A stretch of DNA of 63,229 nt, the filler included, from Calcarisporiella thermophila CBS 279.70 (lineage: Eukaryota; Fungi; Calcarisporiellomycota): the NCBI RefSeq assembly GCF_041956535.1. It is 7 parts of 4 records of this genome, joined end to end, with 100 filler letters (N's around TTAATTAATTAA, not from the genome) between each part and the next. Parts side by side here need not be neighbours in the genome. Positions count along the whole stretch, not along the records: positions 33,484 to 47,521 come from NW_027192238.1; positions 47,622 to 49,401 come from NW_027192249.1; positions 49,502 to 53,328 come from NW_027192212.1; 4 more parts are not named here. One strand, given 5' to 3'. Of the stretch, positions 31,271 through 61,968 are shown piece by piece; the first letter of the stretch is position 1; each line of letters opens with the position of its first letter. The position numbers and the translations under genes are program-made. The notes under the pieces are model-generated. The model was not told where the DNA came from. It made no database searches and saw nothing but the letters and a program-made list of their open reading frames with translations.

Positions 31271-31289
31271 TTTCCTATTTTAACTTTAA

Positions 31290-32420
31290 TCTAAGGAAAA
31301 AAAGGAGTGGAAGTAGGGGTTACTGTGTCAATCCAGTTCTAGAACCGCTCTATTAGCTCCTTCCTTAATCACGCCCAATTTACACCGCCTGCTTAGAAAT
31401 TGTTCGATTTGTCGCTTTTCTCGGGCTCTTATTAGTTCGGCTCCTATAGCCTCCTCAATATCCAGTTTGACCCGATTGATGATGGTTTCGGATGAGGCTC
31501 GAGTGTTTTCAAAATGAAAGGCGATACGATCCCGATGGATTTGCCACAGTTCCGAGTCGAAGATAATTTGAGCCACGTGCTTTGCTGTTCGCGAGGATTC
31601 AGATAGGTCTCCCAATATGAGGTTGCGAGCACTCAGCACCTGAGAATTCTGGAGGCCTGTGATGGTGACGATACACCTCTCTGCCCACTGCCACACTGGT
31701 GTAAGTTCAGGACATTCGAAAAAGGTATAGCGAATTGTGTCCCTTGAAGCGTTACAGCGGGTACACTTTGGATTGTGACCAGGGAATGTAGCGTTAGTGA
31801 TAACTCGTTCTACAAGGATCCGCCATCGTAGAGTACGGTGTTTTGGGAGGGTGGGTCGTTTGTGAACGGAGGTCCACACTTTCTCCCATTCTTTGTTATT
31901 GATCCAACCTCAGACCAGGATCGAGGCACCAGTGTATTCGGCTCTAGAGAGCCATTGCGCTGGGAGTGACGGCCTTGTCGTGTGGTGTATTCCGCGACGG
32001 GCTTACCGGCTAGGTGGCAATGGTAGAGTGGGAGACGGGGGTGGGGGTGTTGCTGTGGTATGTCAGCGCATTCTGTGACTTTTGCAACTAAGATCGGGGG
32101 TAGGTTGAGAAACTTGAGGTCCCATCCGAGAGAGCGGTCGCAGTATCGACGGTGATACGCTCTCCTTAGCTTTTCAGTAGGGAGCATAGAGGATATGAGT
32201 TCCATTTCCGATTGTCTTCCACTATTTCCGTCAAATAATGCTTGTTTATGAAGCGATCTGCACTCGATTTTTCTGCCCCACCGGACAAACGTTAGTATCT
32301 CGTTAAGTAGAACCCACCCTTGCGTTTGAGTTTGGACATGGGGAATGTAGTGGCAAAGATGGCTGTACCATATCCTTCCGGTGCATATTTCCCTATTAGT
32401 GTCAATCAGGGATGTCTACA
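31290..32420 (-). mobile_element. Tx1/L1-like LINE family 1, 3' part of ORF2 (zf-RVT)
   Basis: KHRTLRWRIL, CTRC and TFFECP; homologous to 45110-45680, 49502-50663 and 52547-53328. Confidence 0.85.
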
Positions 32421-33483: not shown

Positions 33484-33735
33484 TATTTGGTGAAAGGTAT
33501 GAAGTAAAGAGGAGGGGACGAGGGGAGGAGGGAAAGAGCGGATTGGGAGAGAGGAAGGGTTGCTTCGTCACTCCAGTTTTAGTCTTGCTCTATCCGAACT
33601 TTCTATTACCGCTCCGTGACTGCACCACCTTCTTCGGAATAACTCTATCTCTCGTCTTTTACGTGCCTTTATCAGTTCACCTCCGATAGCCTCCTCGATG
33701 TCCATTTTGGCACGGAGGATGATTGTCTCGGGTGA
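33484..33735 (-). mobile_element. LINE family 1, 5'-truncated 3' fragment
   Basis: Nearly identical to 52463-52714. Confidence 0.85.
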
Positions 33736-33757
33736 ATCTCACCTCCCGAGTATCTAA

Positions 33758-34101
33758 TTTTTTGATCAATCAATGGAAAATTTTATTTAATTTCCATATA
33801 TTACATGAAGTTAATGTCAATGGACTTAACATGACGAGATATAGGTCCTTGGTAGATAGGCGTTCAATCGATTTGCGTGGATCGTAGTTGTCGTGAATAG
33901 CATGTACGTGAAACCGATGGAATCTTTGTACTTATCGTAGGAGCGACCTTTTCAATAATGTAGACTCAATTTCTGATCAAGTGGACAGCAGTCACAAACT
34001 AAGAGTAAGTGCTGGTGGGGGAAGTGGGATTTGAACCCACGCCGTTCTCATCGGCATACCAGGGATAGTCCACTACACTAACCCTCCCCCAACCCTCCCC
34101 C
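33758..34101 (-). mobile_element. SINE-A (tRNA-like head with encoded CCA, poly-A tail)
   Basis: Homologous to 42861-42959 and 52057-52392; B box GGTTCAAATCC; 11-bp duplication of the head. Confidence 0.85.
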
Positions 34102-34186
34102 CTATTATTAGTTTCTTTATATTTTCAATCTCTTTTCAAATATCTCCTTAAACTATCTTGAGCATACGAAAAAAAATATCTGATAT

Positions 34187-34271
34187 CCGGCTATAGCTCA
34201 GCTGGTAGAGCGGAAGACTGTAGTGATCCATAGCAATCTTTAGGTCCCTGGTTCGAATCCGGGTGGCCGGA
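34187..34271 (+). tRNA. tRNA-Tyr(GTA) with a 12-nt intron (~34224-34235)
   Basis: CCGGCTA/TGGCCGG acceptor stem, A and B boxes, anticodon at 34220-34222, T-run terminator. Confidence 0.95.
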
Positions 34272-40779: not shown

Positions 40780-42706
40780 TTCTTCTTTTATTAGGGTGTC
40801 TCGTCGTGAAAATAAAATATAAAAGCGTGCTGAAAATTGAAAAATAATCTTCTGAGATTGTTTCAAAAGAAAATTTCTATTTGATAATAACTATGGAAGA
40901 ATGTGAAAAAGCGCTCCCAGAAAGCGCCTTAGTTAGTATGGTTATAGAGGAAAGTTATCTTTTCCGGTTGCGATGGGCGAAGAAAAAGAAACAGAAAGAA
41001 CAAACAAAAGGTGGAAAGGACGCACGCATTAAATTTTCTTTTCAAACTCCAGCCAAAAAAACTGCTTTCATCACAATTTTGCTAGTTGACTTCGAATGAA
41101 GCTAACAGACAAATACCCCTCCATCTACTTGGGTGTAGTGCATTTTGATTGGCTCGATTCAATGGATGGGGACTTAGGACGCTATGAAGAGAATATCTTC
41201 TCTTCATAGCGTCATTTGTAAGCTCACTCAAACGTGCTGAAACTTTGCCTAAACATATTATCATGTCATTCACTATACAACTGCTAGAAGCAAATGGAGC
41301 AGTAGTGCTATCAACACTGATCAATACTGATTGATGATAAGCCCTAACACCAACGGACTATTTTCTGCAACCCCCCACACGCACACTCTTTCTTTTATCT
41401 TGAGTGTCAATCAATCAATTGTTCAAGTGGTATAGCACTCGCTTTTTTATGTAATCCTGATAGGAATAATCAGTGGTAGCCCTCAAACGGCTCTGCTTGC
41501 TTTTGATTTACAAAGCAAAGTTTTCACAAAAGAATTTAGCGACGCTGTGGATTTCTGCTACCTCTTAGCATTCGCGATCATTTAGTGGAAGTAATTTAAT
41601 AGGATGGTCGCCTTTACCTAACTGAAGCAAGAGAGAAACGAAATTTAGACTCTAAATCTATGGAGGAGAATTGACTTCCATGCGCTCTCAACCAATAGAG
41701 TCGAGGATTGATATATTTATGGATTAATCATAAATATTTACCTATAATAAAGGATAAATGGGAACCAGAATCACCGGTTTTTTTTTAAAAAAAATAAACC
41801 GGCCAATTCTGGAGTGTAATTTAGAGCTATGAAATATATCTTTCACTTTCTGTACGTTAGAAGTAATACTATGACAGTAGCGTTTCACTCATAATATTAG
41901 AAAATGAGTTGCTATTATAATTTTACTCAACTTTATTATTATAGCCAAACCATACGTATTGAATTCCTTGATATAGTTGGAATCATAATCTCCTAACAAC
42001 ATTCTTAGCTCCTGTCTCTCAATACAACATATAGCATCCATGTTGAGACCCAACTCTCAAGAGATTAAGATGCTTTCTCATATACTTCAACTTCTCTCGA
42101 TGCTATAACAATATCGTATTAGTGGCAGTATTCCTTGCTCTTGTAAATTGCGAGTTAACTTAAAGTACGTAAAATTTCACTATCAGGTGAATGTAAAGGA
42201 TATGAAAGATAAATTAATAAGATAAATTATTACTATTAATGTCCCAACGTATCAATAGAGGTTATCTCTATGAAACACACGCCTTGGCTAAAAGTTTTAG
42301 CAAAGCTTATCTATAATTAAAAATGCTGAAAGTTTACAAAGCCTGAGTAAGTATATATAATCGTTAAACATATTCTATTTTGTTTTTGTTTTTTTCATTT
42401 AGCTTTATTTATATAGAGGTGTTTTATCTCAAACCTCTTCAGCTTTACGATACTTTTCTTATCTTGACATCTTGTTTGCGCGTCGTTGCTACTGATTATG
42501 ATGTGAGTTTCGTTCAAATCTACCAGGGATTCACTTCATTTATACTCTATGTTTTTGAGCAGCTGCCGCTACAATTTAATATTTTGAAGCGAAATTAGTA
42601 TAAAAAAGTTTAATGGCAACATTACTGCTTTATTATTTATAATTCAAGTGATGCAAATACTATCGAGCAAGCAATTAACTAAAAAATGGCTTTTGTTAAA
42701 AAACAC

Positions 42707-42778
42707 TGCCGTTGCCCGGAATCGAACCGGGATCATCACGGCCACAACGTGATGTACTAACCATTATACTACAACGGC
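42707..42778 (-). tRNA. tRNA-His(GTG)
   Basis: GCCGTTG...CAACGGC-A cloverleaf; TCACG-TTGTGGC-CGTGA anticodon arm. Confidence 0.95.
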
Positions 42779-42793
42779 TAAATTTTCCTTAAG

Positions 42794-42860
42794 TGTTACG
42801 AGGAAAATAGAATACCATGGGGAATAAGATTGTGACGGCGTTTTGGGGAATCGTCGCCCC
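42794..42860. mobile_element. Probable LTR terminus (TGTTACGAGG...) 15 bp upstream of tRNA-His
   Basis: Reverse complement TTTTCCTCGTAACA resembles the LTR ends at 44049, 51980 and 60459. Confidence 0.5.
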
Positions 42861-42959
42861 GGGGGAGGGTTAGTGTAGTGGACTATTCCTGGGATGCCGA
42901 TGAGAACGGCGTGGGTTCGAATCCCACTTCCCCCACCAGCACTTACTCTTAGTTTGTGG
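42861..42959 (+). mobile_element. SINE-A head (rest lost in the N gap)
   Basis: Matches the copy starting at 52057. Confidence 0.85.
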
Positions 42960-43564
42960 NNNNNNNNNNNNNNNNNNNNNNNNNNNNNNNNNNNNNNNNN
43001 NNNNNNNNNNNNNNNNNNNNNNNNNNNNNNNNNNNNNNNNNNNNNNNNNNNNNNNNNNNNNNNNNNNNNNNNNNNNNNNNNNNNNNNNNNNNNNNNNNNN
43101 NNNNNNNNNNNNNNNNNNNNNNNNNNNNNNNNNNNNNNNNNNNNNNNNNNNNNNNNNNNNNNNNNNNNNNNNNNNNNNNNNNNNNNNNNNNNNNNNNNNN
43201 NNNNNNNNNNNNNNNNNNNNNNNNNNNNNNNNNNNNNNNNNNNNNNNNNNNNNNNNNNNNNNNNNNNNNNNNNNNNNNNNNNNNNNNNNNNNNNNNNNNN
43301 NNNNNNNNNNNNNNNNNNNNNNNNNNNNNNNNNNNNNNNNNNNNNNNNNNNNNNNNNNNNNNNNNNNNNNNNNNNNNNNNNNNNNNNNNNNNNNNNNNNN
43401 NNNNNNNNNNNNNNNNNNNNNNNNNNNNNNNNNNNNNNNNNNNNNNNNNNNNNNNNNNNNNNNNNNNNNNNNNNNNNNNNNNNNNNNNNNNNNNNNNNNN
43501 NNNNNNNNNNNNNNNNNNNNNNNNNNNNNNNNNNNNNNNNNNNNNNNNNNNNNNNNNNNCACTT

Positions 43565-43979
43565 ACTCGTTGTAGTTCGTGGTCAAATTGTTTGGTTATG
43601 GCTACCGGATTGGGTTGGACATCGTCCAGCACTAATTCAAGTCTCGAGCGGTATATTATCCACAGGGCTATGTCGTGGCTCAGAGCAACCACTTCGTTGA
43701 AGCGTTGACTTAATTGTTTGCTTGTCCAAACAGTCTGTCTTCTCTCGTGGATTCGTGTGGCGGTATTCCAATTATTCGGCAGTTTATCCCATCAACTCTT
43801 TGCCAGAGTTGCGCGATAGCTGGGCAGTCTAGAAAGGCATGGGCAATTGTTTCAGGTATCCCTAGGGACCACCTTTTGCAAGTGTTAGGATCTCCAGTCC
43901 ATTTGCTAGTGATGATTCCGGTAACCATTTTATGCTTCATAGGTCTCCAGCGAAGGATTCTGTGCTTGGGTTCTGAAGT
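43565..43979 (-). mobile_element. LINE family 2 ORF2 fragment (zf-RVT), 5'-truncated
   Basis: PKHRILRW and ETIAHAFLDCP; homologous to 59870-60083. Confidence 0.82.
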
Positions 43980-44049
43980 CACCAAAGCTAAGCCTCCATT
44001 CTCTACTACTGCGCCATTGATGCATTTAGTTCCAAATTTCCTCACAACA
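43980..44049. mobile_element. LTR1 terminal 70 bp (...CCTCACAACA)
   Basis: Aligns to 51912-51980. Confidence 0.75.
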
Positions 44050-44062
44050 AAAATAAAAATCG

Positions 44063-44135
44063 GGTTCTATAGTGTAATTGGTTAGCACCCAGGACTCTGA
44101 ATCCTGTAATCTGAGTTCGAGTCTCAGTAGAACCA
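44063..44135 (+). tRNA. tRNA-Gln(CTG)
   Basis: GGTTCTA/TAGAACC acceptor stem; CAGGA-CTCTGAA-TCCTG anticodon arm. Confidence 0.95.
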
Positions 44136-45109
44136 TAAATTTATCTTTTTACCCACGATATGATAAGAAAGGGTAATATTTTCGAACACAATAACGAAGA
44201 CATGGATAACAACAAAAAGATAAGCAAGAGATTTGAGCACTGTAACAAGAGCCAAGTCAACAAAAATAATATCATCGCCATAACCAGTAATGACAACAAA
44301 ACAACCAGTAACAACCAAAGCACCTATATGGATGATAACAACAGCCACATCTTTCTACCCAAAAGAACCAAGAAAGACAATAACGACGGCACTAATAATG
44401 CCAGTAGACTGCCAGCAATTTGTTATAAAAATCATAAAAACTCACTCTGGCGAACCGTTGCGAAAGCAAAGAAAAAACAATACTTTCGAAGTGATAAAAA
44501 CCACAGTGAAGAACTCTTATTTCTCCAAGCCATTCCAAATACATCGGAGCAATTCTCCAAAGATATTCACAACACTAAGCTCGCTAACTAAAAGGGATAC
44601 AACATGCGCAATAGGCTCAGCTTGAATCAAACTTATTCTTTTCACTAGTCCCATACCCAATAACATCACGTTTTTACGCTAGATCTCGACTAAGTAGGCC
44701 ATGAGTATTATCTGGATGATTTTGGCGTAGAAATCTAGCTTACTGTTCATGGGTATGGAATTCTATTTAATAAAATCCTGTATAATGATAAAAAAAGGAA
44801 ACAAAATAAAAACACAAAGCTCAAATAGTCCCTCAAAAACGTCGAGAAGCCATATTTGTCAAACCAAGGCAAGGATGTCATACCTGAATGAAGAGAGATC
44901 TCAAGCAACCCCATCAAGTGAAAGATACCTTGAAAGTACTGGAAGAAGCGACCGATTGAACCAAAGCAAAAATCCTAAAATAGAGGCTCATGAAATACTG
45001 ATGTATCGCAGCAGCAGTAGTAAGCAAGTGGAGCATAGCGCCGTGGAAAGCATTGCCCATGCTTACCTGGAATGCACAGTCCTGAATCAACCACGGTAAG
45101 TAGTGGACA

Positions 45110-46224
45110 TTGTCAGTCGGATCCTTGGGATTCGGGCACATGTGTCAACCAAAGAGGACAGACTTTTGGACATTCGAAGAAGGTGTGACGGATGGTGTCC
45201 CTCGGAGCGTTACAGCGGGTATATTTCGGGTCATGACCGGGGAATGTCGAGTATGTAATTACACGCTCTACGAGGATTCGCCAGCGTAGTGTGCGGTGTT
45301 TTGGGAGTGTTGGCCGTTTTTGGATGGAGGTCCAGACCTTTTCCCATTCCTTTGCCGTGGATGCAACCTCTGGCCAAGATTGGGGCGTCAGCGTTTCTGG
45401 TTCCGGAGAGCCATTTCGCTGGTGCCTTCCCCGGCGGGTGGAGTATTCCGGGACGGGCGCGCCAGCCAGGTGACAGAGGTGAAGTGGGAAACGAGGAGGC
45501 GGAGGTTGTCGGGGTATGGCAGAACATTTCGTGATTTTCTCTACTAGGTTGGGGGGCAGGATAAGGTATCCGTGTTCCCATTCTAAGGAAAAATCGTTAT
45601 AGCGACGTTCGCACGCTCTTTTTAGCCTTTCCGTGGGTTGCGCAGAATATCTACGCTCCATTTCCGATTGTATCGGCATGTTTTGGATAGGAGTCGGGAG
45701 TTAATCAGATGAACTTTCCCTAGGAGGCTGAGTTTCCGGATTCTCCATGATTGGATCGTCTGTCTCAGTTTCGATAGCTGGCAAGTGTAGTATGCCTCAT
45801 TTGGGTGTTCTGGCATATGTGTGGGGTTAACTGCTGAGGGGAGGTAGATCGGGATGCCGAGGCATGTGATTGCTCCTCCTGCGGGTATGTATTCGCATCC
45901 AGGGTCGATGGAGGTTCGAGCAGCAGGTGTGAGTGCTACGGCCTCCGTTTTGTCGATGTTAATTTTAGCATCTGCCGCTCGTGAGTAAGTGTCAATGAGC
46001 TGGTAGAGATTGGTGATATCCTGTTGGTCAGCCACTCCGACAGTCAGGTCGTCTGCGTACGCGAGTGTCGTGATTGACCGTGGGAGTCCTGGGACAGAAA
46101 TGCCCCGTATCTTGCACTTGATTGCCGCAAGTAGAGGTTTAGCTGTGATGTTGTAAAGGTATGGGGACAGGAGGTTGCCCTGTCTTAACCCTCTTGTGAT
46201 TGGGAATGGGGCTGTAAGAGAACC
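45110..46224 (-). mobile_element. LINE family 1 with RT core and zf-RVT, internally deleted
   Basis: RGLRQGNLLSP, AYADD, KINIDKT, CLGIP, then a jump to the zf-RVT region. Confidence 0.9.
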
Positions 46225-46293
46225 CTTTCATTTAACTTGTATAGGAGACTTTTCAATAAAGATCCTTTAATCTCGAAAAAAAAGAACTTGTTG

Positions 46294-46563
46294 GCCTTCC
46301 TTGGTTGGCAGAGTGGTTAAGAGCCCCGGAGCTTAACCACTGTGTGCTAGGTTTGATTCCCGGCGACGGCACCAGTACTAGAGATGGGTCCGGGTCATAC
46401 TCTAGGAATCGAGCAATAAGCTACTTCGTTAATAATTTGATATTGGTAGTTATCAGTAAACAAGTAATACATGTAAGAAAATGGTAGAGGGAGTGTACAG
46501 TTCTTTCATTTAACTTGTATAGGAGACTTTTCAATAAAAATCCTTTAATCTCAAAAAAAAAAA
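46294..46563 (+). mobile_element. SINE-B (tRNA-like head with CCA, LINE-like tail) with GAACTTGTTG TSD; extra tail fragment at 46225-46283
   Basis: Homologous to 54511-54798 and 60102-60388. Confidence 0.88.
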
Positions 46564-46577
46564 TAATGAACTTGTTG

Positions 46578-47473
46578 AAGAATTACGCCAATGGAATTGG
46601 CAATTGTCATGGACAGCCAAGAACATGAGGGCATCACATTCAAGTGTGCCTTCTTATCAGATCTTCTCATAGCAATCAAAGGACAATGGATACAGGCACA
46701 AAGGAAAAAAGACGAAGAAGAGTTCAAGCAAAAAATAAAATGTTCGCTAATCCAGATCGATGATAGCCAAGAGGCAGCCTTCAATTTCGAGGAAGCAAAG
46801 AACTCCTAACCAGACATTTCCAAGTACGGAACTCTCTAAACTGTATTCCATGGGATAACTTTCGCGGACGACCCATATTTTCTCTTGACGAATTAGTTGG
46901 ATCATTTTCTTCATCCTGACGTATATTTGATACGGTAGTTCTGCTGGTTCCTTCACGAGCAGCAATTTCACGTGTGGAATAGCCTTCTTCGAGTAGGTCC
47001 GATATACGAGCGCGTTTAACAGGAGTATTGCGAGGCACAATGCTTATATAATAAGATAATAAAAAGCGAGGCTAACAGAATACATGGGATAATTTTCGGG
47101 CGATGGATGCTTTTTGTTGTTGAATTACAAGAGTATTAATCCACACTGGACTAAACGAGCAAATATGTCCCAAAAAAATTTCGGTTTAAAACGCATTTAC
47201 CCTTGAAAAGTTACAAACATAGCACTCCTTGATGTGAATGGAATGAGAGCTGATGTTATAAGGTTTTGCAAAATATATAATATTTCTTTGAAGTTTTATC
47301 CTTATAGGAAGTATGATTCGTAATATGAAAAAAGGGGGTGTCAAGAAACTTTTGAGAGGCACTTTATCTACCATGTCTTACATGTATTGCTTATTTTCTA
47401 ATATCTTTATCTATCAAATTTTCTTTATTAACAAAAAATGAAACTTTTTAATAAAGATCCTTCAAAAAAAAAA
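46578..47473 (+). mobile_element. Decayed LINE family 2-like 3' end, interrupted by a Tc1 fragment
   Basis: IKGQWIQAQRKKDEEEFK resembles IKSKWWMAMKQDRKKDF; tail ACTTTTTAATAAAGATCC-polyA. Confidence 0.6.
46830..47364 (-). mobile_element. Tc1/mariner fragment (one TIR and the HTH N-terminus)
   Basis: GYSTREIAAREGTSRTTVSNI...GRPRKLS; TIR-like TA-AAGTGCCTCTCAAAAGTT. Confidence 0.7.
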
Positions 47474-47621
47474 TAATGAACTTGTTGGATCAAAAAGATA
47501 AAAAAGATCATTTTTATACCCNNNNNNNNNNNNNNNNNNNNNNNNNNNNNNNNNNNNNNNNNNNNTTAATTAATTAANNNNNNNNNNNNNNNNNNNNNNN
47601 NNNNNNNNNNNNNNNNNNNNN

Positions 47622-49401
47622 GGTTTTTGACGGTCGCTTTGTTTAAGGCTCTGTAGTCGATACACATTCTGAGGTCGCCATCTTTCTTTTTTGCAAAGAG
47701 TGTTGGGGCTCCAAATGGTGATTTGCTTGGTTGGATGAACTGTTTGTCGATAAGATCTTGGAGTTGAGTCCGTATTTCGTCCAATTCAGTGTAACTGAGT
47801 CTGTAAGTTGGCCTGGAAGGTGGTTCAGTTCCGGGGATTAATTCAATATGGTGATCTACAGTCCTTTCCGGAGGCAATCCTGGAGGAAGAGAGTCAGGAA
47901 ATACATCATTATAATTGTTCAACAATACTTCAAGATCAGGGTTGTCGATTGAGTTGTTGGATTCGTTATCGTCTGTTTTGCTCAATAGTGTCAAGTAAAT
48001 CTCGTGTTGCTTCGTGAGTCGCTTCATTTGCATTGCTGATAGCATTTCCACGTTACTGTTCAGCGCATTTTTGAACTCGATTTCTTGGTTTCGATGAAAA
48101 AACGTTATAGTGTTGTTTCTCCAGTTGATCTGAGGATTGTGCTCGACTAGCCAAGTCTTTCCCAAGACGATATCATAATGTGGAAGGTCTGCAACAATAA
48201 AGTCAAGTGATTGCTCGTATTCTCCAAGCCGTAAGTGGGCGTCTACAAGTGTTCGGCTACAGATCTGTTTGTCACCGTTGGCAAAAGATAATTCGGAATC
48301 GGGAGTTTCGACTATCTTATTACCGAAACAATAGGCTAAGTCTTTCGTTACAAAATTGTCGGATGCTCCTCCATCGACGAGAATTTTGACCGGAAATTTG
48401 TCTAGAAATCCTCGATACATCAGAAGGTCTCTGCGTCGATTGATCGTCGTCATGTTGAGTTGGGGCGGTGGGGAATTAGCGGGAAAAATATTTTCATCAT
48501 TGGTCCCAGTGGAGATCCCCTTCAGCACCGGGACTTGAATTTTTCCGACGATGATTGCGTGTTTCTCGACTTCTTGGGACACGCTTGAGCAATGTGACCT
48601 TTCTCGCGACAGAAAAAGCACGATCCGCTCTTTCTCAGTCGCTCTTTTTCGTTTTCGTCAAGTTTTTTGTGTCTTTGGATTGCATCGATCTCCATTGGCC
48701 GTGGTCCACTATGAGCTTCGCGACTGGTTGAGGCGCGAACATTAAACTCAGGTCGATGTTCCCGGTTACGAAAATAAACGGCATCGTAGCGCTCGGCTTC
48801 TCGCACTGCTTCGTTTAGGGTAGGCGGGTTCTTGTATTCAATTTCCTTGCGCGTTTGCACTTTTAGCCCTCGAATAAACTTGTCGATCAATTCTTCCTCC
48901 GTAATTCCTGGAATTTGCATTGCTAGTGACCTGAATGTTACTGCATACTCTTGCACGCTGCGTCGTTGTCTTAGGTCCGCAAGCTTATCTCTCGCATGTT
49001 TAACCGAGTTTATCGGTTGGAACATGATGATGACTTCGTTTTTGAAGGTGTCCCATTCTGTTGGCAATCGTCCTTGTATCTTCAAATGTCTCCACCAAAT
49101 AAGGGCGTCTCCTTGGAATAAAGCAGCGGCATACGGGACCTTCATATGCTCAGGGGGATTCGTTCCCACGAAATAGTTTTCAACTTGATCAATCCATTCG
49201 CGCACGTCGGGGTAGTGTCTGCCACCAAACCTGGCGGGTTCAGGCATACGGAAAGGTGCTGGTACAAAAATCGGTTCCATTATTTCAATATCGTTGTCTC
49301 GTAAAAATAATTCTGGTGTCTAGTGTCTGGTTTCTGGTTAAAATTTTTCTGGATTTCTAGTAGTTTCACGTAGGTAGATCGAAGTCGTCGCTACCAATTG
49401 T
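47622..49401 (-). mobile_element. Ty3/gypsy LTR retrotransposon internal region: PBS, gag (49280-48522), protease and start of RT
   Basis: Retrotrans_gag region, [14 protein letters not shown] knuckle, [29 protein letters not shown]; PBS TGGTAGCGACG at 49386-49396. Confidence 0.95.
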
Positions 49402-49501
49402 NNNNNNNNNNNNNNNNNNNNNNNNNNNNNNNNNNNNNNNNNNNNTTAATTAATTAANNNNNNNNNNNNNNNNNNNNNNNNNNNNNNNNNNNNNNNNNNN
49501 N

Positions 49502-50880
49502 TGCGAAGAAGAGGTGAGGAGAGCCATCCGGCTGGCTCCAATGAGGCGTATGCTCGGAGGTAGCCCAGTAGCATCACCAAACTGGACTGCGACCGAGGCC
49601 TTGTCCCTACCTCTCTACAAGTGCCCGTTAATCACAGACGAGGGCGGACAGATGGAGGAGCCAAAACCCCCAACACCGCCATACCTCCTCAATGAGACAC
49701 TAACTTTTGTACGCTGGGGAGGACAAATCGAGTGCAGATCGCTCCATAATCAGGCTTTATTTGACAGGAATATTGGAAGGCAATCGGAAATGGAGCGTAG
49801 ATACTCTGCGCTCCCTACTGAAAAGCTAAGGAACGCGTGCCACCGCCGATACTGCAGCCGTTCTCTTGGATGGGAGCTCCGTTACCTCAACTTACCCCGA
49901 GCTTAGTTGCAAAGGTCACGGAGTGTACTGATATACCGCAACAACACCCTCACCCCCGTTTCCCACTTTATCACTGCCACCTGGCCGGCAGGCCTGTCGT
50001 AGAATACTCCACCCGACAAGGACGGCACTTCCGGCGCAACGGCTCTCTAGAGCCGAACATATTGGTTCCTCAATCCTGGCCAGAGGCTGGATCTACACAC
50101 GAGGATTGGAAGAAAATCTGGACTTCCGTCCGCAAACGACCCACCCTCCCAAAACACCGTGCGCTACGCTGGCGGATTCTTGTAGAAAGAGTTATCACTA
50201 ACTCTACATTCCCTGGTCACGATCCAAAGTGTACCCGCTGTAACGCTTCGAGGGATACAATTCACCATACTTTTTTCGAACGTCTGAACTTACACCAGTG
50301 TGACAGTGGGCAGAGAGGTGTATCATCACCATCACAGGCCTCCAGAATTCTCAGGAGCTAAGTGCTCGCAACCTCATAGTAGGAGACCTATATGAATCCT
50401 CACGAACAGCAAAGCACGTGGCTCAAATTATCTTCGACTCGGTACTGTGGCAAATCCATCGGGATCGCATTGCCTTCCATTTCGAGAGCACCCGAGCCTC
50501 ACCCGAAACTATCAACCGGGCCAAACTGGATATTGAGGAGGCTATAGGAGCCGAACTAATAAGAGCCCGAAAAAAGCAACAAATCGAACAGTTTCGAAAC
50601 AGGTGGTGCCAATAGGGTACGGTTAAAGAAGGAGATACTAGAGCGGTTCTAGAACTGGATTGACGCAGCAGCCCCTACTGCTTATCCTTTTTCATCTCAC
50701 TACATTTTCTGATATCCTGTGCTAGCTGAGATTTACCTATTTGAGTTGAAAATTGTTATAATCAATTTATCCCAAACTAAAATACCACCTTAATATTTAA
50801 CTTTCCTTTCCTATTACTTTCAATAATGTAACTATTGTATTTTAGAGTCTTCTTAAACAATTAAGACTCGATAAAAAAAA
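49502..50880 (+). mobile_element. LINE family 1, 3' half with 3' UTR and poly-A
   Basis: zf-RVT region with frameshifts; terminal GAGTCTT..AAGACTC hairpin before the A-run. Confidence 0.85.
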
Positions 50881-51475
50881 TATACCGATGCCTACTAGCA
50901 GTTTACACAACAACTACGGCTATATACAGCATCTATCACATCTATCTCTCTATATGATTATGCAATTTTAATCTTTCATAAGCATATCTCTATCTCTATT
51001 CATTTCAACTATAGTAAATAAAAATAAAAATATAACCTCCCTGATTGATCGAAATATATTGAAATACTTGCTCTCCTTAGCGTTACAAGCCCTACGGCTT
51101 CAGAGATTAGAGCATTAGATCCTAGATCATTCAAGATCATCTAGGACATTCAAAAACACGACCAGCATAGAAATAATGTATTTGTTCCCCGTGAAATCAG
51201 ATTCTATCTTGCTTTAATATTTCTTCATAATACTTTGTAAACTTAGACTTGATAAAACTTACCCCACTACCCTTTCAGTAAACAAAATAGAATATCTCAA
51301 AATAATTTTTGATTTGCTTTTTCAATTCAAGTATATTATTGTACCAATATTTATAACATATTCAAATCGCATATCTCATAACGCATTAAAATTAATATAA
51401 GAATTGTAATAGACTTGGGAAGATGGTGAATAAGAAATGAAAATTTGTAAAATTTTTAAAGTGGTTTAAAAAAAT

Positions 51476-51557
51476 TGACGAGAGTGGGATTCGAACCCAC
51501 GCCTCCGAAGAGATCACGGCCTTAACGTGACGCCTTAGACCGCTCGGCCATCTCGCC
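51476..51557 (-). tRNA. tRNA-Leu(AAG)
   Basis: GGCGAGA/TCTCGTC acceptor stem, TCACG-TTAAGGC-CGTGA anticodon arm, long variable arm. Confidence 0.96.
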
Positions 51558-51566
51558 TATTTCTTG

Positions 51567-51980
51567 TGTTGCGTCGAATAATAGACTAATAAGGTCTATC
51601 CTGACAATCCTCTAGCTATCCCTAAGCTCTTGATTGTCCTTCCGTAAACACTTCAGAAGGCTAATAAACGACACAAAGTGGATTGTAAAGTAATCCGGTT
51701 CTATCACAAAACAAAAATAGCACCCTTTTATTGTAAACAAAGATGTTTCCCTTTTATACTAAAGATAACGTACCACAAACATAAATGTAAACAAGATAAT
51801 AAAAATATAATGAGGTAATCAAGGAAAAATATGTTAACCGTAACCGTAAGCTAATAAATATACTAATAAAACCATCCCAAGGACTTAAAGAAGTGTAAAA
51901 GAAAAATAAGCCACCAAAACCAAGCCTCCTTTCCTCCTACTGCGCCATAATTCCATATTGTGCCAATTCTCCTCACAACA
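51567..51980. mobile_element. Solo LTR1 (414 bp, TGTTG...CAACA) with 4-bp TSD CTTG
   Basis: CTTG at 51563-51566 and 51981-51984; homologues at 43980-44049 and 61622-61968. Confidence 0.85.
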
Positions 51981-51985
51981 CTTGA

Positions 51986-52056
51986 TGTTATAGGCAAAGG
52001 GAGATTTCGTGGAGAGCTGTGCGGATTCCTTAATAATAAAAATAAGAGATTGGGAA
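51986..52056. mobile_element. LTR2 start (TGTTATAGG...), interrupted by SINE-A
   Basis: Near-identical to 59042-59108. Confidence 0.75.
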
Positions 52057-52392
52057 GGGGGAGGGTTAGTGTAGTGGACTATCCCTGGTATGCCGACGAG
52101 AACGGCGTGGGTTCGAATCCCACTTCCCCCACCAGCACTTACTCTTAGTTTGTGACTGCTGTCCACTTGTTCAGAAATTGAGTCTTCATTATTGAAAAAA
52201 ATCGCCCCTACAAAAAGTACAAAAGATTACATCGGTTTCACGTACATGCTATTCACGACAACTACGATACACGCATATCGATTGAAAGTCTATCGATCAA
52301 GGACCTATATCTCGTTATGTTACGTCCATTGACATTAACTTCATGTAATATATGGAAATTAAATAAAAGTTTCCATTGATTGATCAAAAAAA
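52057..52392 (+). mobile_element. SINE-A, full length
   Basis: GGGGGAG...TTCCCCC-A-CCA head, B box GGTTCGAATCC, poly-A. Confidence 0.88.
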
Positions 52393-52439
52393 GAGTTTAA
52401 TGGTTACAATGAAATAAGAAAGGGGGGAATAAAGGGTAA

Positions 52440-53328
52440 ATTAGATGTATATAGTGATCGGGTATTTGGTGAAAGGTATGAAGTAAAGAGGAGGGGAGGA
52501 GGGGAGGAGGGAAAGAGCGGATTGGGAGAGAGGAAGGGTTGCTTCGTTACTCCAGTTTTAGTCTTGCTCTATCCGAACTTTCTATTACCGCTCCCTGACT
52601 GCACCATCTTCTTCGGAATAACTCCATCTCTCGTCTTTTACGTGCCTTTATCAGTTCACCTCCGATAGCCTCCTCGATGTCCATTTTGGCACGGACGAGG
52701 ATTGTCTCGGGTGATGCTCGAGTGCATTCGAAATGGTAGGCGATTCGGTCCCGATGGATTTGCCATAACACCGAATCGAAGACGCTTTGAGCCGCGTGTC
52801 TTACTGTCCTCGGGGCTTCTGGTAGGTCGCCAAGTACGAGGTTCCTGGGGCTCAGCACCTGAGTGTTTAGGGGGCCTGAGATGGTGTTGATACACCTTTC
52901 CGTCCAATGCCACACTGACGTGAGTTCGGGACATTCGAAGAAGGTGTGGCGGATGGTGTCCCTCGGAGCGTTACAGCGGGTACATTTCGGGTCATGACCA
53001 GGGAATGTCGAGTTTGTAATTACACGCTCTACGAGAATTCGCCAGCGTAATGTGCGGTGTTTTGGGAGGGTTGACCGTTTTTGAATGGAGGTCCAGACCT
53101 TTTCCCATTCCTTTGCCGTGGATGCAACCTCTGGCCAGGATTGGGGCGTCAGCGTTTCTGGTTCCGGAGAGCCATTTCGCTGGAAGTGCCTTCCCTGTCG
53201 GGTGGAGTATTCCGGGACGGGCGCGCCAGCCAGGTGACAAAGGTGGAGTGGGAAACGAGGAGGCGGATGTTGTCGGGGTATGGCAGAACAGTTCGTGATT
53301 TTCTCTACTAGGTCGGAGGGCAGGATAA
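52440..53328 (-). mobile_element. LINE family 1, 3' region
   Basis: zf-RVT; near-identical to 45170-45564 and 33484-33735. Confidence 0.87.
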
Positions 53329-54510: not shown

Positions 54511-54798
54511 GCCGTCCTTGGATGGCACAGTGGTTAAGAGTTTCGGATCTTAACCATTGTGTGCTGAGTTCGATTCCCGGAGACGGCACCTGTACTATAG
54601 ACGTGTCCGGGACCTACTCTAGGAATCGAGCAATAAGCTACTTCGTTAATAATTTGATATTGATCGTTAATATAGTGACTTGTCAGAAATCAAGAAATAC
54701 ATGTAAGCAATGGTAGAAAAAAATAAGTATACAATCCTTTCATTTAACTTGTATAGGAGACTTTTCAATAAAAGATCCTTTAATCTCAAAAAAAAAAA
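54511..54798 (+). mobile_element. SINE-B, full length, followed by a LINE ORF2 scrap (~54815-55000)
   Basis: A box TGGCACAGTGG, B box GTTCGATTCC, poly-A; downstream KTVKTWKSRSISHLGKV. Confidence 0.88.
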
Positions 54799-55290
54799 TT
54801 AGCAACCCATTTCATTTGACCTTGTTGCCACCATTCCCTTCTATCCCGTAAGATTACTCCTTTACTCTGTTAATGATCCCATTCAATACCAAAAACATAT
54901 TTCCACCCACGTCATTCTACGAACAACTGTTGGAGAAGTTAGAGAAAACAGTTAAAACCTGGAAATCACGCTCAATATCCCACCTAGGAAAAGTTTTACA
55001 TGTCATTAAAAAAATCGTTATTAGAATTAGCCATAAACCAGCATACTTTTAGTTTTAGTGATCCCATTATTTAGTTTTATATAGTTATTACAACTCTCGT
55101 ATCCTATAATATAGAGTATAAGATTTTGTTTATAAATTTGCGCCTAAAGTTTAATTAATAGAAAAGCACAAATAAATTTTAGCTATATATATTTTCATTT
55201 TACTCCATCTTTTCAATGCTCTCAGCCATTGGATTCATATAATAGTTTATTGTAATATCAATTCTAATCCATCAAATATTTCCAGCATCT

Positions 55291-56478: not shown

Positions 56479-58257
56479 CTTTTTTGATGTAGCGATCGAA
56501 TATCTACTCTTCAATCTTGGAAATCGCTTAAACAATACAGGCGTGGGAATAAAAGTTTAGCTTTATTAACCACGAAAATTCGAATCAGTCACTCGAAATA
56601 TGATTTGGCGGTATTTAGCTTACAATTAATACTGTATCGATAAAACATATATAAGTATAAACAAGCAATGCGATGAGGCTATCATTGAACAAGGGAGTTC
56701 ATGTTGTGAAAAAAACGTACCCACATAAATTTCTAAGTCAAATATTTTAAATAGAAACACATTAATTAGTCATCTGCTTTTTTTTGCTTTACTAAGCTCA
56801 AGCGAATAAAATTATTTTGACTCCACGATTACTTATGAAAATGCCCACTTTTGTTGTAAAAAATAAAAGCAGTTTTGAAAAGTGTACTTTTATTTTTTGC
56901 AAGCAGTTAATAAATTTCGACCAAAGAGTAATTATTCTTTCTTTCAATTAGAGTCTTGAAATGAATTAAACATAAAAACAAATTTAGAGTTTCCTAATAT
57001 TTCCCTTTACTAAATTGTTTATACAAATTTAAGATGAAATACTGGAATGGTTGATAACATATATGGTTTCTTTTATGTGCTGTATTCCGACTTGGATGTT
57101 GCAGAACTAATATTAAAATAATCGATCCGCTCTAAGCACATGTAGTGAGAATGTAACGAGGATGGAACCTAAATCCTTTTAGTATATACTAGAAAAATAT
57201 TGAATAGTCTCTTTGTAAACATCATGAAAATTTCTAGACTCTAAATATTTGGATTCATATTTGGAAAGTAATGCTCTTGGATAATTGAAAATGAAGAAGA
57301 AATGATACACGATAATTTTACACTACATAGGAAAAAGAAAATATTTAATGCGATATTAAATAAAGGATAGATAGAACAAAAGATGGTTACATGAGCTAGA
57401 GAGGTGCTAAGCGATTTTAAAATGGAAATAATACGACTAATATGCAGTACCGTATAAAATACTATTAAAATTAGTGTTGGGTTTGTATTAAAATATCAAA
57501 CGCTATCAAGAACCCATTATCAATTTCTTTTGCATTAAAGCACTGAAAACTACTCTATTTATCAAGAGGTTATCATTGAAGCTATTTTATGCTTTTAAAA
57601 GTGGTAGGATAACTTTTACGTTAAAATTAACATGGTAATAGTTCTGGTCTACCTTAAATGTGGTTAAAAGAAAAAAAATCAAAGTGCGAGAAAAACAAAC
57701 ACACTAGTATTATTCTGGATAGGTATAGAGTTAGTAGAGGTGATGGTCCATAACGTAAAATAGAAAAAATGAAACTAGAGTTTGTAGTTTATAATCACTA
57801 CTTTTAATAACAATTAGGCAAAATAAAAAATATGGTAGATAAAGAAGAAAAAGGGAGCGCACAAGATTAAATTGATTATATATTACGATTACACTCTATC
57901 TTGCTATGCTAGAGTTATCCTAGACGAATGCAAAAATTCTACAAAGGTATTAAATTAATTTCCCTAATTTTAGATCTGAACCCATTTCTTTTTTTTTTAA
58001 CCCATAAGAACTTAATTATATTCAAAATCTCCTCATTATTACAAGAAGCTAGCTATAAAGCATTAGATGCAACTGAATATCTGTTGTCATATCAATTAAA
58101 TTGGATAAACTTGTGGTTATTGTCTAGCCTATAATATTAACGCGGGCTCCGTGCTGGTGCTAAATAACACTGCAAACTCTCACGGAAAGGTCTCGTCTGT
58201 AGAAATCGAAGCAGCAACTTAGTGATTCAGCTCTGTTGTCCCAAGCCAGTATCCTTC

Positions 58258-58431
58258 TTTTTTTTTTAAAGAATTTTTATTGAAAAGTCTCCTATACAAA
58301 TTAGATGAAAGGCTTTTACACCCTCCCATTTTTACATGGAATTTGTCTTTCTGATTCTGATCCCCGGTGACGGCACCAGTATTAGAGATGTGACCGGGAC
58401 ATACTCTAGGAATTGAGCTATAAGCTGCTTC
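58258..58431 (-). mobile_element. SINE-B fragment with an internal inversion
   Basis: Tail on the minus strand (58258-58359), middle segment on the plus strand (58360-58431). Confidence 0.7.
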
Positions 58432-58532
58432 GCTATGACCTCACCAAAATGCAGTATAATACGTCAATGATACTTTTTCATATATACTTCTTCTTATTCT
58501 TTGGTTATTGATAGACATTATTTGGTTGAGAG

Positions 58533-58969
58533 GTTTTTTTTTTTGAAGCTACGGAGCTTTACTGAAAATTATCCTCATGAAGTTAATCGTTAAAGGTGAA
58601 TCAAAGGTCATATGTCTTTGTGCAGATTATAGCCAATTGCTGGTAGAAGTTATAGAACAATTAAGAAACAGTAATAGTAGAATAATCAGACATGACAAGC
58701 AGAGAAAACCAGACACAACAAGTAGAGAATACTAGAACGACAGGTATAGCAAGCGAGGGACAGTAATGAGAGACAGTAACAATGGTAAGACCAGGCACAA
58801 CAAGACAGATAATACTGATAGAGAACATAGACACGACAAGCAAGGCACAGAATTCGTGGAGAATCCAGTCACTTTTTTTGAGCTGGTGGGGGTTACGGGA
58901 TTCAAACCCGCGCGATCTCGATGGCAGCCAAGAGCGCTTACCACAAAGCTATTCTACCCCCCTCCCCCC
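58533..58969 (-). mobile_element. SINE-C (tRNA-Gly(GCC)-like head with CCA, TTAACTTCATG tail motif shared with SINE-A, poly-A)
   Basis: Head GGGGTAG..CTGCCAT..GGTTTGAATCCC..ACCCC-A-CCA; single copy in the window. Confidence 0.65.
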
Positions 58970-59258
58970 TTGGTGATTTTCTCTTATCGAAAAAAAAGTG
59001 ATTGATATTTTATTTAAATATTCTCATTAGAAAGCGATTCCTGTTACAGGCAATGGGAGATTTCGTGGAGAGCTGTGCGGATTCCTTAATAATAAAAATA
59101 AGAGATTGATGAGGTACAATAAAACAAAATAGAGGGGTTTAAATAGAATTAAGAGATAAAGAAAATAGCTCAATTGGTGTTCAAGGATGAACAAAGATAA
59201 ACCAACAAATTAGCAATCAACATCAACAAGATAACCATGAGGGAGCTTAGGTGCTTCC

Positions 59259-60084
59259 TTTTTTTTAACAAAGGACTTTTATTGAAAAGTATCCTATCCT
59301 ATTAAAAAGGTAGGGTAGCTTCTACGTCAAAATCACCCAGGTAATGCTCCTGGCCTACCTTGCAGAATCTGGAAGATAGAAGGAAAAGTAAGAAAGAGAG
59401 AAAGAAAAAGATATAAGTGTAAGGGGAAGAGAGAAAAGGTGATGAAGAAAGAGCTAGGAAAGTATGGAAACAGAAATTAGCTTAATAAAGAAGGGGAAAG
59501 AAATAAATGTGAGAGGGAGGGATAAAAAGTTGTGTGCAACGGTATTAAGATAAGTTGCTTATGTACATGAAATCATGGAGAGAAGGGAAGGATTGAAAAA
59601 GTAAAAGAAAGAGGAAGAAGGAAAAAAAAAGGAAAAATAAAAAAAGGAAAGATATGGAAAAGAACGATAGAGGGAGTGGTATTAATGTACAGCGGTGAAG
59701 AGTTGGGTGCAGTTCTCAGGCCGGAGTTGGGACTGAGATTTGATCTTCAGAGGTGTCCTGGGTGAAGATCACAGAATCATCTATGATGTTCGCCCAGTTT
59801 CCCTTTGACCATTTATCGATGAAGTCTTTTTTCCGATCCTGTTTCATTGCCATCCACCACTTGGACTTTATTCCTCGCAGCAGTTCATGGTCAAATTCTT
59901 TGGTTATGGCTACCGGGTTGGGTTGGGCATCGTCCAGCACTAATTCAAGTCTCGAGCGGTATATTATCCACAGGGCTATGTCGTGGCTCAGAGCAACCAC
60001 TTCGTTGAACCGTTGGTCTATTTGCTTGTCTTGTCCAAACAGTCTGTCTTCTTTCGTGGATTCGTGTGGCGGTATTCCAATTGC
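59259..60084 (-). mobile_element. LINE family 2, 5'-truncated, complete 3' UTR and poly-A, TSD CTTAGG(T/C)GCTTCCT
   Basis: End of ORF2 at 59716-60000; TSD copies at 59246 and 60084. Confidence 0.85.
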
Positions 60085-60101
60085 TTAGGCGCTTCCTGAA
60101 T

Positions 60102-60388
60102 TTTTTTTTTTGAGATTAAAGGATCTTTTATTGAAAAGTCTCCTATACAAGTTAAATGAAAGGATTGTATACTTATTTTTTTCTACCATTGCTTACATGT
60201 ATTTCTTGATTTCTGACAAGTCACTATATTAACGATCAATATCAAATTATTAACGAAGTAGCTTATAGCTTGATTCCTAAAATATGTCCCGGACCCATCT
60301 CTAGTACAGGTGCCGTCTCCGGGAATCGAACCCAGCACACATTGGTTAAGCTCCAGGGCTCTTAACCACTGTGCCATCCAAGGACGGC
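60102..60388 (-). mobile_element. SINE-B, full length, with 16-bp TSD TAGGCGCTTCCTGAAT
   Basis: TSD at 60086-60101 and 60389-60404. Confidence 0.92.
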
Positions 60389-60567
60389 TAGGCGCTTCCT
60401 GAATGTCTATGTGACTGCCTCTGTGACTTACCCGTACAAAAGCCAATTTTCTCCTAACATGCCCGTCNNNNNNNNNNNNNNNNNNNNNNNNNNNNNNNNN
60501 NNNNNNNNNNNTTAATTAATTAANNNNNNNNNNNNNNNNNNNNNNNNNNNNNNNNNNNNNNNNNNNN

Positions 60568-61621
60568 TCTATTGGAGTTTTTTGTAGGGAGTACTAAACG
60601 TCAGAATTAAGGACCTTCCCGGCCAGGAAGAGGAAACTCTCAGAGTGAAATTGGAAGCAGTCTTGTCCAAGTTTGCCAGAGTCATCCAGATCGACTTTCA
60701 ATATTACGGCAACACAGGGTGGTTGCAAGACCACTGCTACGCCATACTCGAACCGAACCCGGAGACCCCGGAATCTTTGGAAAATATCTTTCTCGCCAAT
60801 TGGCCATCGATGAGGACCAAATAATCCTTTATTGGAGAGGATCTACTCCAGTGTGCAATTACTGTAAGACTCCTGGCCACATACGCGTAGAATGTCCAAA
60901 GAAGAACAAGCAGCATCAAGAATATGAACCCGTCCAAACCCCTACCCCGCTCAATCGCGAAACCATGCCAGACAGAATGAATACAGACAACGAGGCGGAG
61001 AAGTCAGAGAAGAAACAGGAAGATACCAGTAAAACATCCAGTACTCATCAGACAAACACACCTAATACCATCCCCTAGGATCCAAAGTATTCAGCGAAAT
61101 AACCGGTTTTGAACTATCCACTGTGCCAGCCAAGGGGAGTCCCGAAATCAAAACGGTGAACCTGCAAGAATTCCTTGCATCCACAAAGAACATGAAGTTC
61201 AGCCCTACGCGGATCAACCATCCAACACGGAAAATTATCTCTAAGCCAAAAAGCCCCTCAAAGACCAAGAGCCTCCCTAAGGCAAAAGCGGCAAGCAATC
61301 CCAATGGAACATGAGCTTAGATATATATTACAGTGACAGTAAATGTCATTCTCTTTCAGCACCTCTGCTCTCTGCATATCAAACGGTATGCGAGAGTAAA
61401 GAAAAATTATCTATCTACATTTCATTATTTTATATACTCAAGCATTCAAATCAACCAACTCTATCAATCTATCTACCTTCTTCTTATTTGTAGACCACTT
61501 CAAGGTAGGCTGGGGGCAGTACCCAGGTGATTTTGACGTAGAAGTCTACCCTACCATTCCCTTCAGATAAAAATCATCGAGTGGATATAAAAATAATACA
61601 CCTCAAGGAGGAAAAAAAAAA
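60568..61621 (+). mobile_element. Tx1-like ORF1-only non-LTR element
   Basis: VRIKDLP..LSKFARV RRM-like region, YWRGSTPVCNYCKTPGHIRVECP knuckle, then 3' UTR motif and poly-A with no ORF2. Confidence 0.7.
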
Positions 61622-61968
61622 TGAAAATATTGGCTTAATTTATATACTGCTTAACGATTTATATTCTTCTTTGGGTAGTTTTATTACTATAAATTACGGC
61701 TTACTGTTAACATATTTATCCTTGATTATATTTTTATTATCTTGTTTACATTTTACTTTTGTGAGACATTATCCTTAGTATAAAGGGTGACATCTTTATT
61801 TACATTAAAAGTGCGCTATATTGTTTTGGGATAAAACCGATTTACTTTACCCGGCACTTTGCGTCGTTTATTAGTCTTCTGAAATGATTTAGGGACGAAT
61901 GATCAAGAGCTTAGGGATACCTAGAGGATTGTCAAGATAAACCTTATTAGCTTATATTCGACGCAACA
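61622..61968. mobile_element. LTR1 copy, inverted relative to 51567-51980
   Basis: Reverse complement begins TGTTGCGTCGAAT and aligns for ~340 bp. Confidence 0.8.

Follow-up and report, generated by a model that had tools for sequence, protein, structure and literature searches.

Long terminal repeat ends close upstream of tRNA genes, with non-LTR elements at a second distance, in the fungus Calcarisporiella thermophila

Results

LTR ends at two, and probably three, tRNA genes

We analysed a 63,229-nucleotide stretch of DNA (the window) from Calcarisporiella thermophila CBS 279.70 (assembly GCF_041956535.1; phylum Calcarisporiellomycota, NCBI taxonomy), in which ends of long terminal repeats (LTRs) lie 9-15 bp upstream of transfer RNA (tRNA) genes. 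The window is made of 7 parts joined by 100-base linkers, so that adjacency across a linker need not mean adjacency in the genome, and a further 600-base gap (42960-43559) lies between the tRNA-His and tRNA-Gln loci. Six tRNA genes are called by both ARAGORN and Rfam: Tyr, His, Gln, Leu(AAG), Leu(TAG) and Leu(CAG). Three of these (Tyr, Leu-TAG and Leu-CAG) have no such LTR terminus. At tRNA-Leu(AAG), where insertions are stacked, we find the following features:

51476-51557, minus strand: tRNA-Leu(AAG), found by ARAGORN and Rfam; target of LTR1, LTR2a and a family A element
51567-51980, minus strand (presumed sense, from motif order): LTR1, a solo LTR of 414 bp (TGTTG...CAACA), with LTR1c as second copy
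51986-52052, unstranded: LTR2a, the initial 67 bp of an older LTR that the family A element interrupts; 97% identical to 59042-59108
52057-53328, minus strand: family A non-LTR element (L1/Tx1-like), 3' end towards tRNA-Leu(AAG), with a zf-RVT domain (PF13966) and ending in antisense tRNA-like sequence

With the duplication counted, 9 bp separate LTR1 from the 5' end of tRNA-Leu(AAG) (51557, minus strand). CTTG flanks it on both sides as a 4-bp target-site duplication, and 5 or 6 bp do not match. Both the distance and the duplication had been proposed in an earlier note on this DNA, and a base-by-base check confirms them. The nearest gap is more than 1.3 kb from LTR1, which is 80% identical to LTR1c across 318 bp. 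The minus strand of LTR1 carries TATAAA at 223 and AATAAA at 249, in LTR order, as motif matches only in AT-rich DNA.

LTR2 starts at 51986, one base past the right-hand CTTG, and therefore lay 10 bp from tRNA-Leu(AAG) before LTR1 arrived; the earlier estimate of about 10 bp is upheld once LTR1 is subtracted. This single gene has received two independent LTR insertions, 1 bp apart. From the nesting, LTR2a appears to have come first, then the family A element and finally LTR1.

Two other tRNA genes, on another contig, show related arrangements:

44063-44135, plus strand: tRNA-Gln(CTG), found by ARAGORN and Rfam
43976-44049, minus strand: LTR1b, the end of an LTR1 relative (74 bp, 80% identical to 51908-51980)
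43560-43975, minus strand: family B non-LTR fragment within LTR1b; truncated at the 5' end, which lies 87-92 bp upstream of tRNA-Gln
42707-42778, minus strand: tRNA-His(GTG), found by ARAGORN and Rfam
42794-42860, plus strand: candidate third LTR terminus, cut by a family A element
42861-42958, minus strand: family A 3' end, 82 bp upstream of tRNA-His; 97% identical to 52057-52154

The CAACA end of LTR1b at 44049 lies 13 bp from tRNA-Gln (44063). This is the distance that had been noted, for a repeat then assigned to LTR1 itself; it belongs to a relative. The end that faces tRNA-Gln is the opposite of the LTR1 end that faces tRNA-Leu(AAG), which bears out the claim that both orientations are present. 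Judged from the sequence, LTR1 would point the same way as tRNA-Leu and LTR1b away from tRNA-Gln, depending on which end is taken as U3.

At tRNA-His (42778), TGTTACGAGG at 42794 lies 15 bp from the gene. The distance stands as first described; the identity of this sequence as an LTR end is probable, the window holding no second copy of it (E 0.05). Its first 18 bases resemble the three U3-type ends, with a score reached by 3 of 554 non-training TGTT sites, the His terminus included. The His terminus and the Gln end were also considered as two halves of one LTR, and this was rejected because their flanks differ (TAAG vs AAAA).

A far tier of non-LTR elements

Upstream of tRNA genes, the 3' ends of family A elements lie at 81 bp (Leu(AAG), LTR1 removed), 82 bp (His) and 84 bp (Tyr), the Tyr figure counting a doubled C-run and being 96 bp otherwise. 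Other elements face the gene with their 5' ends: family B at tRNA-Gln, and a short interspersed element (SINE) at tRNA-Leu(TAG):

54511-54800, plus strand: SINE at 82 bp upstream of tRNA-Leu(TAG), a gene that lacks an LTR; serves as far-tier reference

Two tiers had been claimed upstream of the same tRNA genes. The claim fits all scorable loci (LTR ends at 9-15 bp, non-LTR and SINE ends at 81-92 bp); targeting itself is supported in part.

The ends of family A and C elements (52057-52137, 42861-42941, 34013-34102 and 58876-58969) carry antisense tRNA-like sequence with A-box- and B-box-like motifs and CCA. They face away from the host tRNA gene, and their folding z-scores are weak (-0.5 to -1.8). 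Such ends could serve as an internal RNA polymerase III (Pol III) promoter, to judge from these motifs. ARAGORN predictions of tRNA-Thr or undetermined type at 34013, 42845 and 52059 were rejected as host targets: they are family A ends, unscored by Rfam. In the family A copy at tRNA-Tyr (33484-34102) the 5' part is inverted, in twin-priming geometry, which marks the tRNA-like end as the 3' end of the element. We read the tRNA-Tyr at 34187 as a putative intron-containing gene.

The SINE family is 290 bp long (54511-54800, 60099-60388, 46294-46564 and 58255-58435) and its head folds strongly (z -5.7). Its 3' tail is 81% identical across 53 bp to the end of family B, a long interspersed element (LINE) that is probably the partner of the SINE family. 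A conserved motif of ~60-90 bp near family B-like 3' ends (59306-59365, 61498-61558, 44694-44779 and 57588-57655) is possibly a structured RNA; it gave no match at the Rfam gathering score. Degraded, intron-broken frames at 29600-31300, left of a family A fragment, may be a DNA transposase remnant, which they resemble.

Further LTR copies

Two more LTR copies lie in the last part of the window:

59042-60459, unstranded: LTR2b, second LTR2 copy, an LTR of ~276 bp (TGTTA...TAACA) split by family B and a SINE
59260-60083, minus strand: family B non-LTR element within LTR2b; 5'-truncated, bearing poly(A) and a 14-bp duplication
60099-60388, minus strand: SINE with a 15-bp duplication, same target as family B, inside LTR2b
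58860-58969, plus strand: family C 3' end, 72 bp to the left of LTR2b; a relative of the family A end
61610-61968, plus strand: LTR1c, second LTR1 copy, left limit approximate; other end replaced by non-LTR sequence

The second LTR2 copy had been delimited as 59042-59245; with its nested insertions it extends to 60459. Clear promoter or poly(A) signals are absent from LTR2, unlike LTR1 and LTR1c, the latter retaining TATAAA and ATTAAA with the spacing seen in LTR1. The contig ends 8 bp beyond LTR2b. Using the far tier as a ruler, we predict a tRNA 5' end 11-16 bp beyond 60459 from the SINE, whose head is in the right-hand part of LTR2b, or 13-16 bp from family C if that family keeps the family A distance and inserted before LTR2b. 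The same ruler was dropped for LTR1c, where the junction with non-LTR sequence is unclear.

Placement relative to chance

Three termini (LTR1, LTR2a and LTR1b) are secure, because each has a second copy in the window and was defined independently of tRNA genes. In all there are 5 repeat-defined LTR copies: 3 at tRNA genes, 1 with a predicted tRNA gene (LTR2b) and 1 unscorable (LTR1c). Both tRNA-free contigs (26.6 and 6.7 kb) are devoid of LTR copies. A duplication can be sought in LTR1 and LTR2b only, the other three copies being without one end.

With the 9-15 bp range picked post hoc, and two of the three secure insertions sharing one tRNA gene, uniform placement over 35.5 kb would put at least 3 of 5 repeat-defined insertions in that range with P = 1.7e-8; if insertions are limited to the 100 bp upstream, 3 of 3 fall there with P = 3.4e-4, or ~0.004 with a 16-bp window (hand arithmetic). 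The proximity of LTRs to tRNA genes is real and well beyond chance. Support for targeting comes from two tRNA genes with secure LTR ends, a third that is probable and a further, predicted one.

A candidate source element

A separate contig of the window holds a possible source:

47622-49401, minus strand: Ty3/gypsy gag-pol fragment, with ACA, a 2-nt spacer, a TGG primer-binding site, gag, protease and the start of reverse transcriptase

The fragment has two overlapping open reading frames (ORFs), with gag at 48522-49247 (PF03732, PF19259) and pol in the -1 frame. None of the LTRs in the window adjoins gag-pol or an integrase gene, and integrase and RNase H sequence of the source element is absent. 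The primer-binding site (49377-49396) would pair over 13 bases with the 3' end of a tRNA and, past a skip, over 7 bases that resemble an initiator-tRNA T loop. Its partner would be a tRNA with U at position 72, which we take to be an initiator-tRNA feature; no tRNA gene in the window has U at this position.

Among at least 120 relatives, the best match of the fragment is a degraded C. thermophila gene model (54%). The nearest relative (P0121), a degraded gene model, ends ~32 residues from the GPY motif. Among the matches listed, 94 of the 98 relatives that bear an integrase SH3 domain also have a Pfam chromodomain (hand count). The chromodomain-bearing (chromovirus) group is usually linked to heterochromatin. 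Since Ty3 integrase contacts Brf1 through a vestigial chromodomain (PMC8632968), chromovirus ancestry is compatible with Pol III targeting.

Searches with the pol fragment gave no relative in viral contigs and 29 distant metagenome loci (24-48% identity). None of the 29 carries a tRNA gene, and none matches the LTRs or the gag-pol contig at the DNA level. These loci are other families and so have no bearing on targeting either way. Against PDB, gag gave zinc-knuckle matches only.

Gene context

Genes for ELP3 and importin-beta lie on the same contig as tRNA-His and tRNA-Gln. ELP3 matches Mortierellaceae and Mucorales at 92-93%. Importin-beta is 97-100% identical to a C. thermophila protein (3 intron-free segments), compared with 50-59% to a Mortierellaceae protein. 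In contig 1-26607 the genes (HSP70, glutamate synthase, sphingosine-kinase-like) have 50-64% G+C, and in the repeat-rich contigs (within 26708-63229) about 40%.

Discussion

Probable targeting of the Pol III start region

We consider it likely that the repeats are solo or broken LTRs of at least two related families, left by Ty3/gypsy elements that were steered to the Pol III start region of tRNA genes. By analogy with known elements, the integration complex would dock at the tRNA gene on TFIIIB, as for Ty3, or on the TFIIIC subunit Tfc4, the contact proposed for DGLT-A (PMC6101501). It would then cut close to the start site, within a few bases and whichever the orientation; later recombination between LTRs would leave a solo LTR. 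Each new LTR would displace older insertions outwards, and later non-LTR copies would land ~82-90 bp from the gene, now within the LTR and 60-75 bp from its end, truncating it. Later insertion at the far-tier distance would account for the similar break points of LTR2a, LTR1b and the His piece, each of which stops after 67-74 bp.

Several observations weigh against this explanation. Secure LTR ends are found at just two tRNA genes. The P value of 0.00095 (from base frequency) for finding an AACA end 9-15 bp upstream in at least 3 of the 6 tRNA genes flatters the case, since a TCAACA-like motif occurs naturally at Pol III start sites in yeast (PMC6673722). An unrelated site at 41990-42001, ~700 bp downstream of tRNA-His, outscores the His terminus as a U3-type end; its resemblance to the U3-type end of LTR2 and LTR1 is probably due to chance, and a matching other end was not found by eye. 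LTR2b is not directly scorable for tRNA distance, the contig stopping first, and its flanks (TTCC and TGCC) match at 3 of 4 bases. No tRNA gene follows the intact end of LTR1c (61968) in the window; with its other end lost to non-LTR sequence, this copy is neutral on targeting. In the far tier, a family A fragment followed by stacked SINE pieces (45113-46577) has no tRNA 5' end at ~82 bp. The gag-pol contig and the LTR ends have just three bases (ACA) in common, and a 33-base LTR1 pattern had no match in metagenome or viral contigs. Finally, the duplication is 4 bp here, compared with 5 bp in Ty3 (PMC6673722) and Tj1 (PMC4600332).

An explanation with no targeting at all would have the elements insert broadly in open, AT-rich DNA, with harmless copies beside tRNA genes surviving and the CAACA start motif perhaps selectively kept. 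Counted from the mature tRNA, the LTR1 terminus has its first A at -13. In yeast tRNA transcription a TCAACA-like start motif is common and its first A near -13 is the preferred start (PMC6673722), so LTR1 may supply a new transcription start site. The intact LTR1c end without a tRNA gene fits broad insertion as well, as does the richness of these short contigs in repeats as well as tRNA genes. Nevertheless, the first A lies at -17 at Gln and -19 at His, and survival alone fails to explain a 5-bp spread or two families 1 bp apart; insertion confined to the 100 bp upstream still leaves the low P values given above (3.4e-4, or ~0.004). We regard this explanation as unlikely.

We give about the same low weight to the possibility that targeting is real and the repeats stem from another source: another LTR lineage, small non-autonomous LTR elements or an integrase-like DNA transposon. 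The choice of source element is where this possibility overlaps with the Ty3/gypsy explanation. Ginger-type DNA transposons have TG...CA ends and a 4-bp duplication, and the 4-bp duplication at LTR1 would fit them. Also in its favour, no LTR is attached to coding sequence and the gag-pol relatives listed are mostly chromodomain-bearing, although the contact of the vestigial Ty3 chromodomain with Brf1 (PMC8632968) tempers the last point. Against a DNA transposon in particular, the inverted ends are just 5 bp (TGTTG/CAACA in LTR1 and TGTTA/TAACA in LTR2b, best local end match), and LTR1 and LTR1c have TATA and poly(A) signals in LTR order. Long terminal inverted repeats are a feature of Ginger-type DNA transposons and of miniature inverted-repeat transposable elements, and the 5-bp ends likewise disfavour the latter.

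Least of all do we expect an artefact, in which collapsed copies of tRNA genes and repeats were misjoined or one tRNA-LTR unit was copied by segmental duplication. The assembly is fragmented, with the 600-base gap between the His and Gln loci and contigs that end inside repeats. A single duplicated unit is excluded, however, because the tRNA genes, the LTR families and the ends that face the gene all differ by locus. The LTR1 duplication is intact and far from gaps, and a misjoin would not yield equal spacing of 81-84 bp at three loci.

Comparison with known systems

Pol III start-site targeting is a textbook case of convergent safe-harbour integration. The closest parallels to the proposed Ty3/gypsy targeting in C. 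thermophila are Ty3 with its sigma solo LTRs in Saccharomyces cerevisiae (Metaviridae) and DGLT-A with TRE5 in Dictyostelium discoideum. As in our data, Ty3 LTR ends lie ~20 bp or less from the mature tRNA 5' end, in both orientations and at many tRNA species (PMC5911963, PMC6673722). Our case differs in the shorter gap at Leu(AAG) and in a host outside the Ascomycota. The candidate pol is in the -1 frame, compared with a +1 gag-pol frameshift in Ty3, a difference that is relevant only if the candidate is the source.

Most DGLT-A copies are likewise solo or broken LTRs that lie ~15 bp in front of tRNA genes and may face either way (PMC5006619, PMC6101501), the distance being 13-18 bp for 18 of 20 copies (PMC6101501). 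Its genes are shared with L1-like elements at a second fixed distance, a two-distance arrangement described for dictyostelids (PMC5006619), and its primer site also lies 2 bp after the LTR (PMC5006619, PMC6101501). The far tier is at 81-92 bp here and at 40-54 bp there, and one family here faces the tRNA gene by its 3' end. The two overlapping ORFs of the candidate contrast with the single ORF of DGLT-A, again relevant only if the candidate is the source. The DGLT-A integrase has no chromodomain.

Tj1 of Schizosaccharomyces japonicus lies 5-11 bp from tRNA genes in the table rows examined and in one orientation (PMC4600332). Tj1 is self-primed, whereas the candidate here carries a tRNA primer site and the LTRs here face tRNA genes with opposite ends. 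Like Tj1, the beta LTR/Tca8 (Candida albicans) and Tyl3, Tyl6 and Ylt1 (Yarrowia lipolytica) all have ascomycete yeast hosts, unlike the elements described here. The elements of C. thermophila thus behave like Ty3 and DGLT-A yet match neither, with a 4-bp duplication, a differing candidate coding region and a host lineage unreported for such elements.

In the part covered, a review limits its list of close-upstream LTR elements to Saccharomyces, Schizosaccharomyces, Candida, Yarrowia and Dictyostelium, and anticipates further fungal cases (PMC5911963). The accessible parts of PMC7175516, PMC11393059 and preprint 10.1101/2022.12.06.519325 add nothing on early-diverging fungi. No report of tRNA-targeted elements for Mucoromycota, Zoopagomycota or Calcarisporiella was listed in a literature search that covered few subscription papers and no Repbase entries.

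Implications

The Calcarisporiellomycota are often grouped within the Mucoromycota. A lineage near Mucoromycota would add a deep fungal branch and bears on whether start-site targeting had a single origin or several. At single genes, the stacked insertions date the order of events and supply an internal ruler, so that targeting is readily testable with the assembly or reads.

More tentatively, the whole may be a Dictyostelium-like system, with three LTR families at the start site, three LINE families and a SINE at 81-92 bp, and an LTR tier that derives from a tRNA-primed chromovirus with a 4-bp stagger. If this is true, start-site targeting by fungal Ty3/gypsy elements would be ancient and common instead of having been invented in yeasts, and it would possibly work by way of a chromodomain turned towards TFIIIB.

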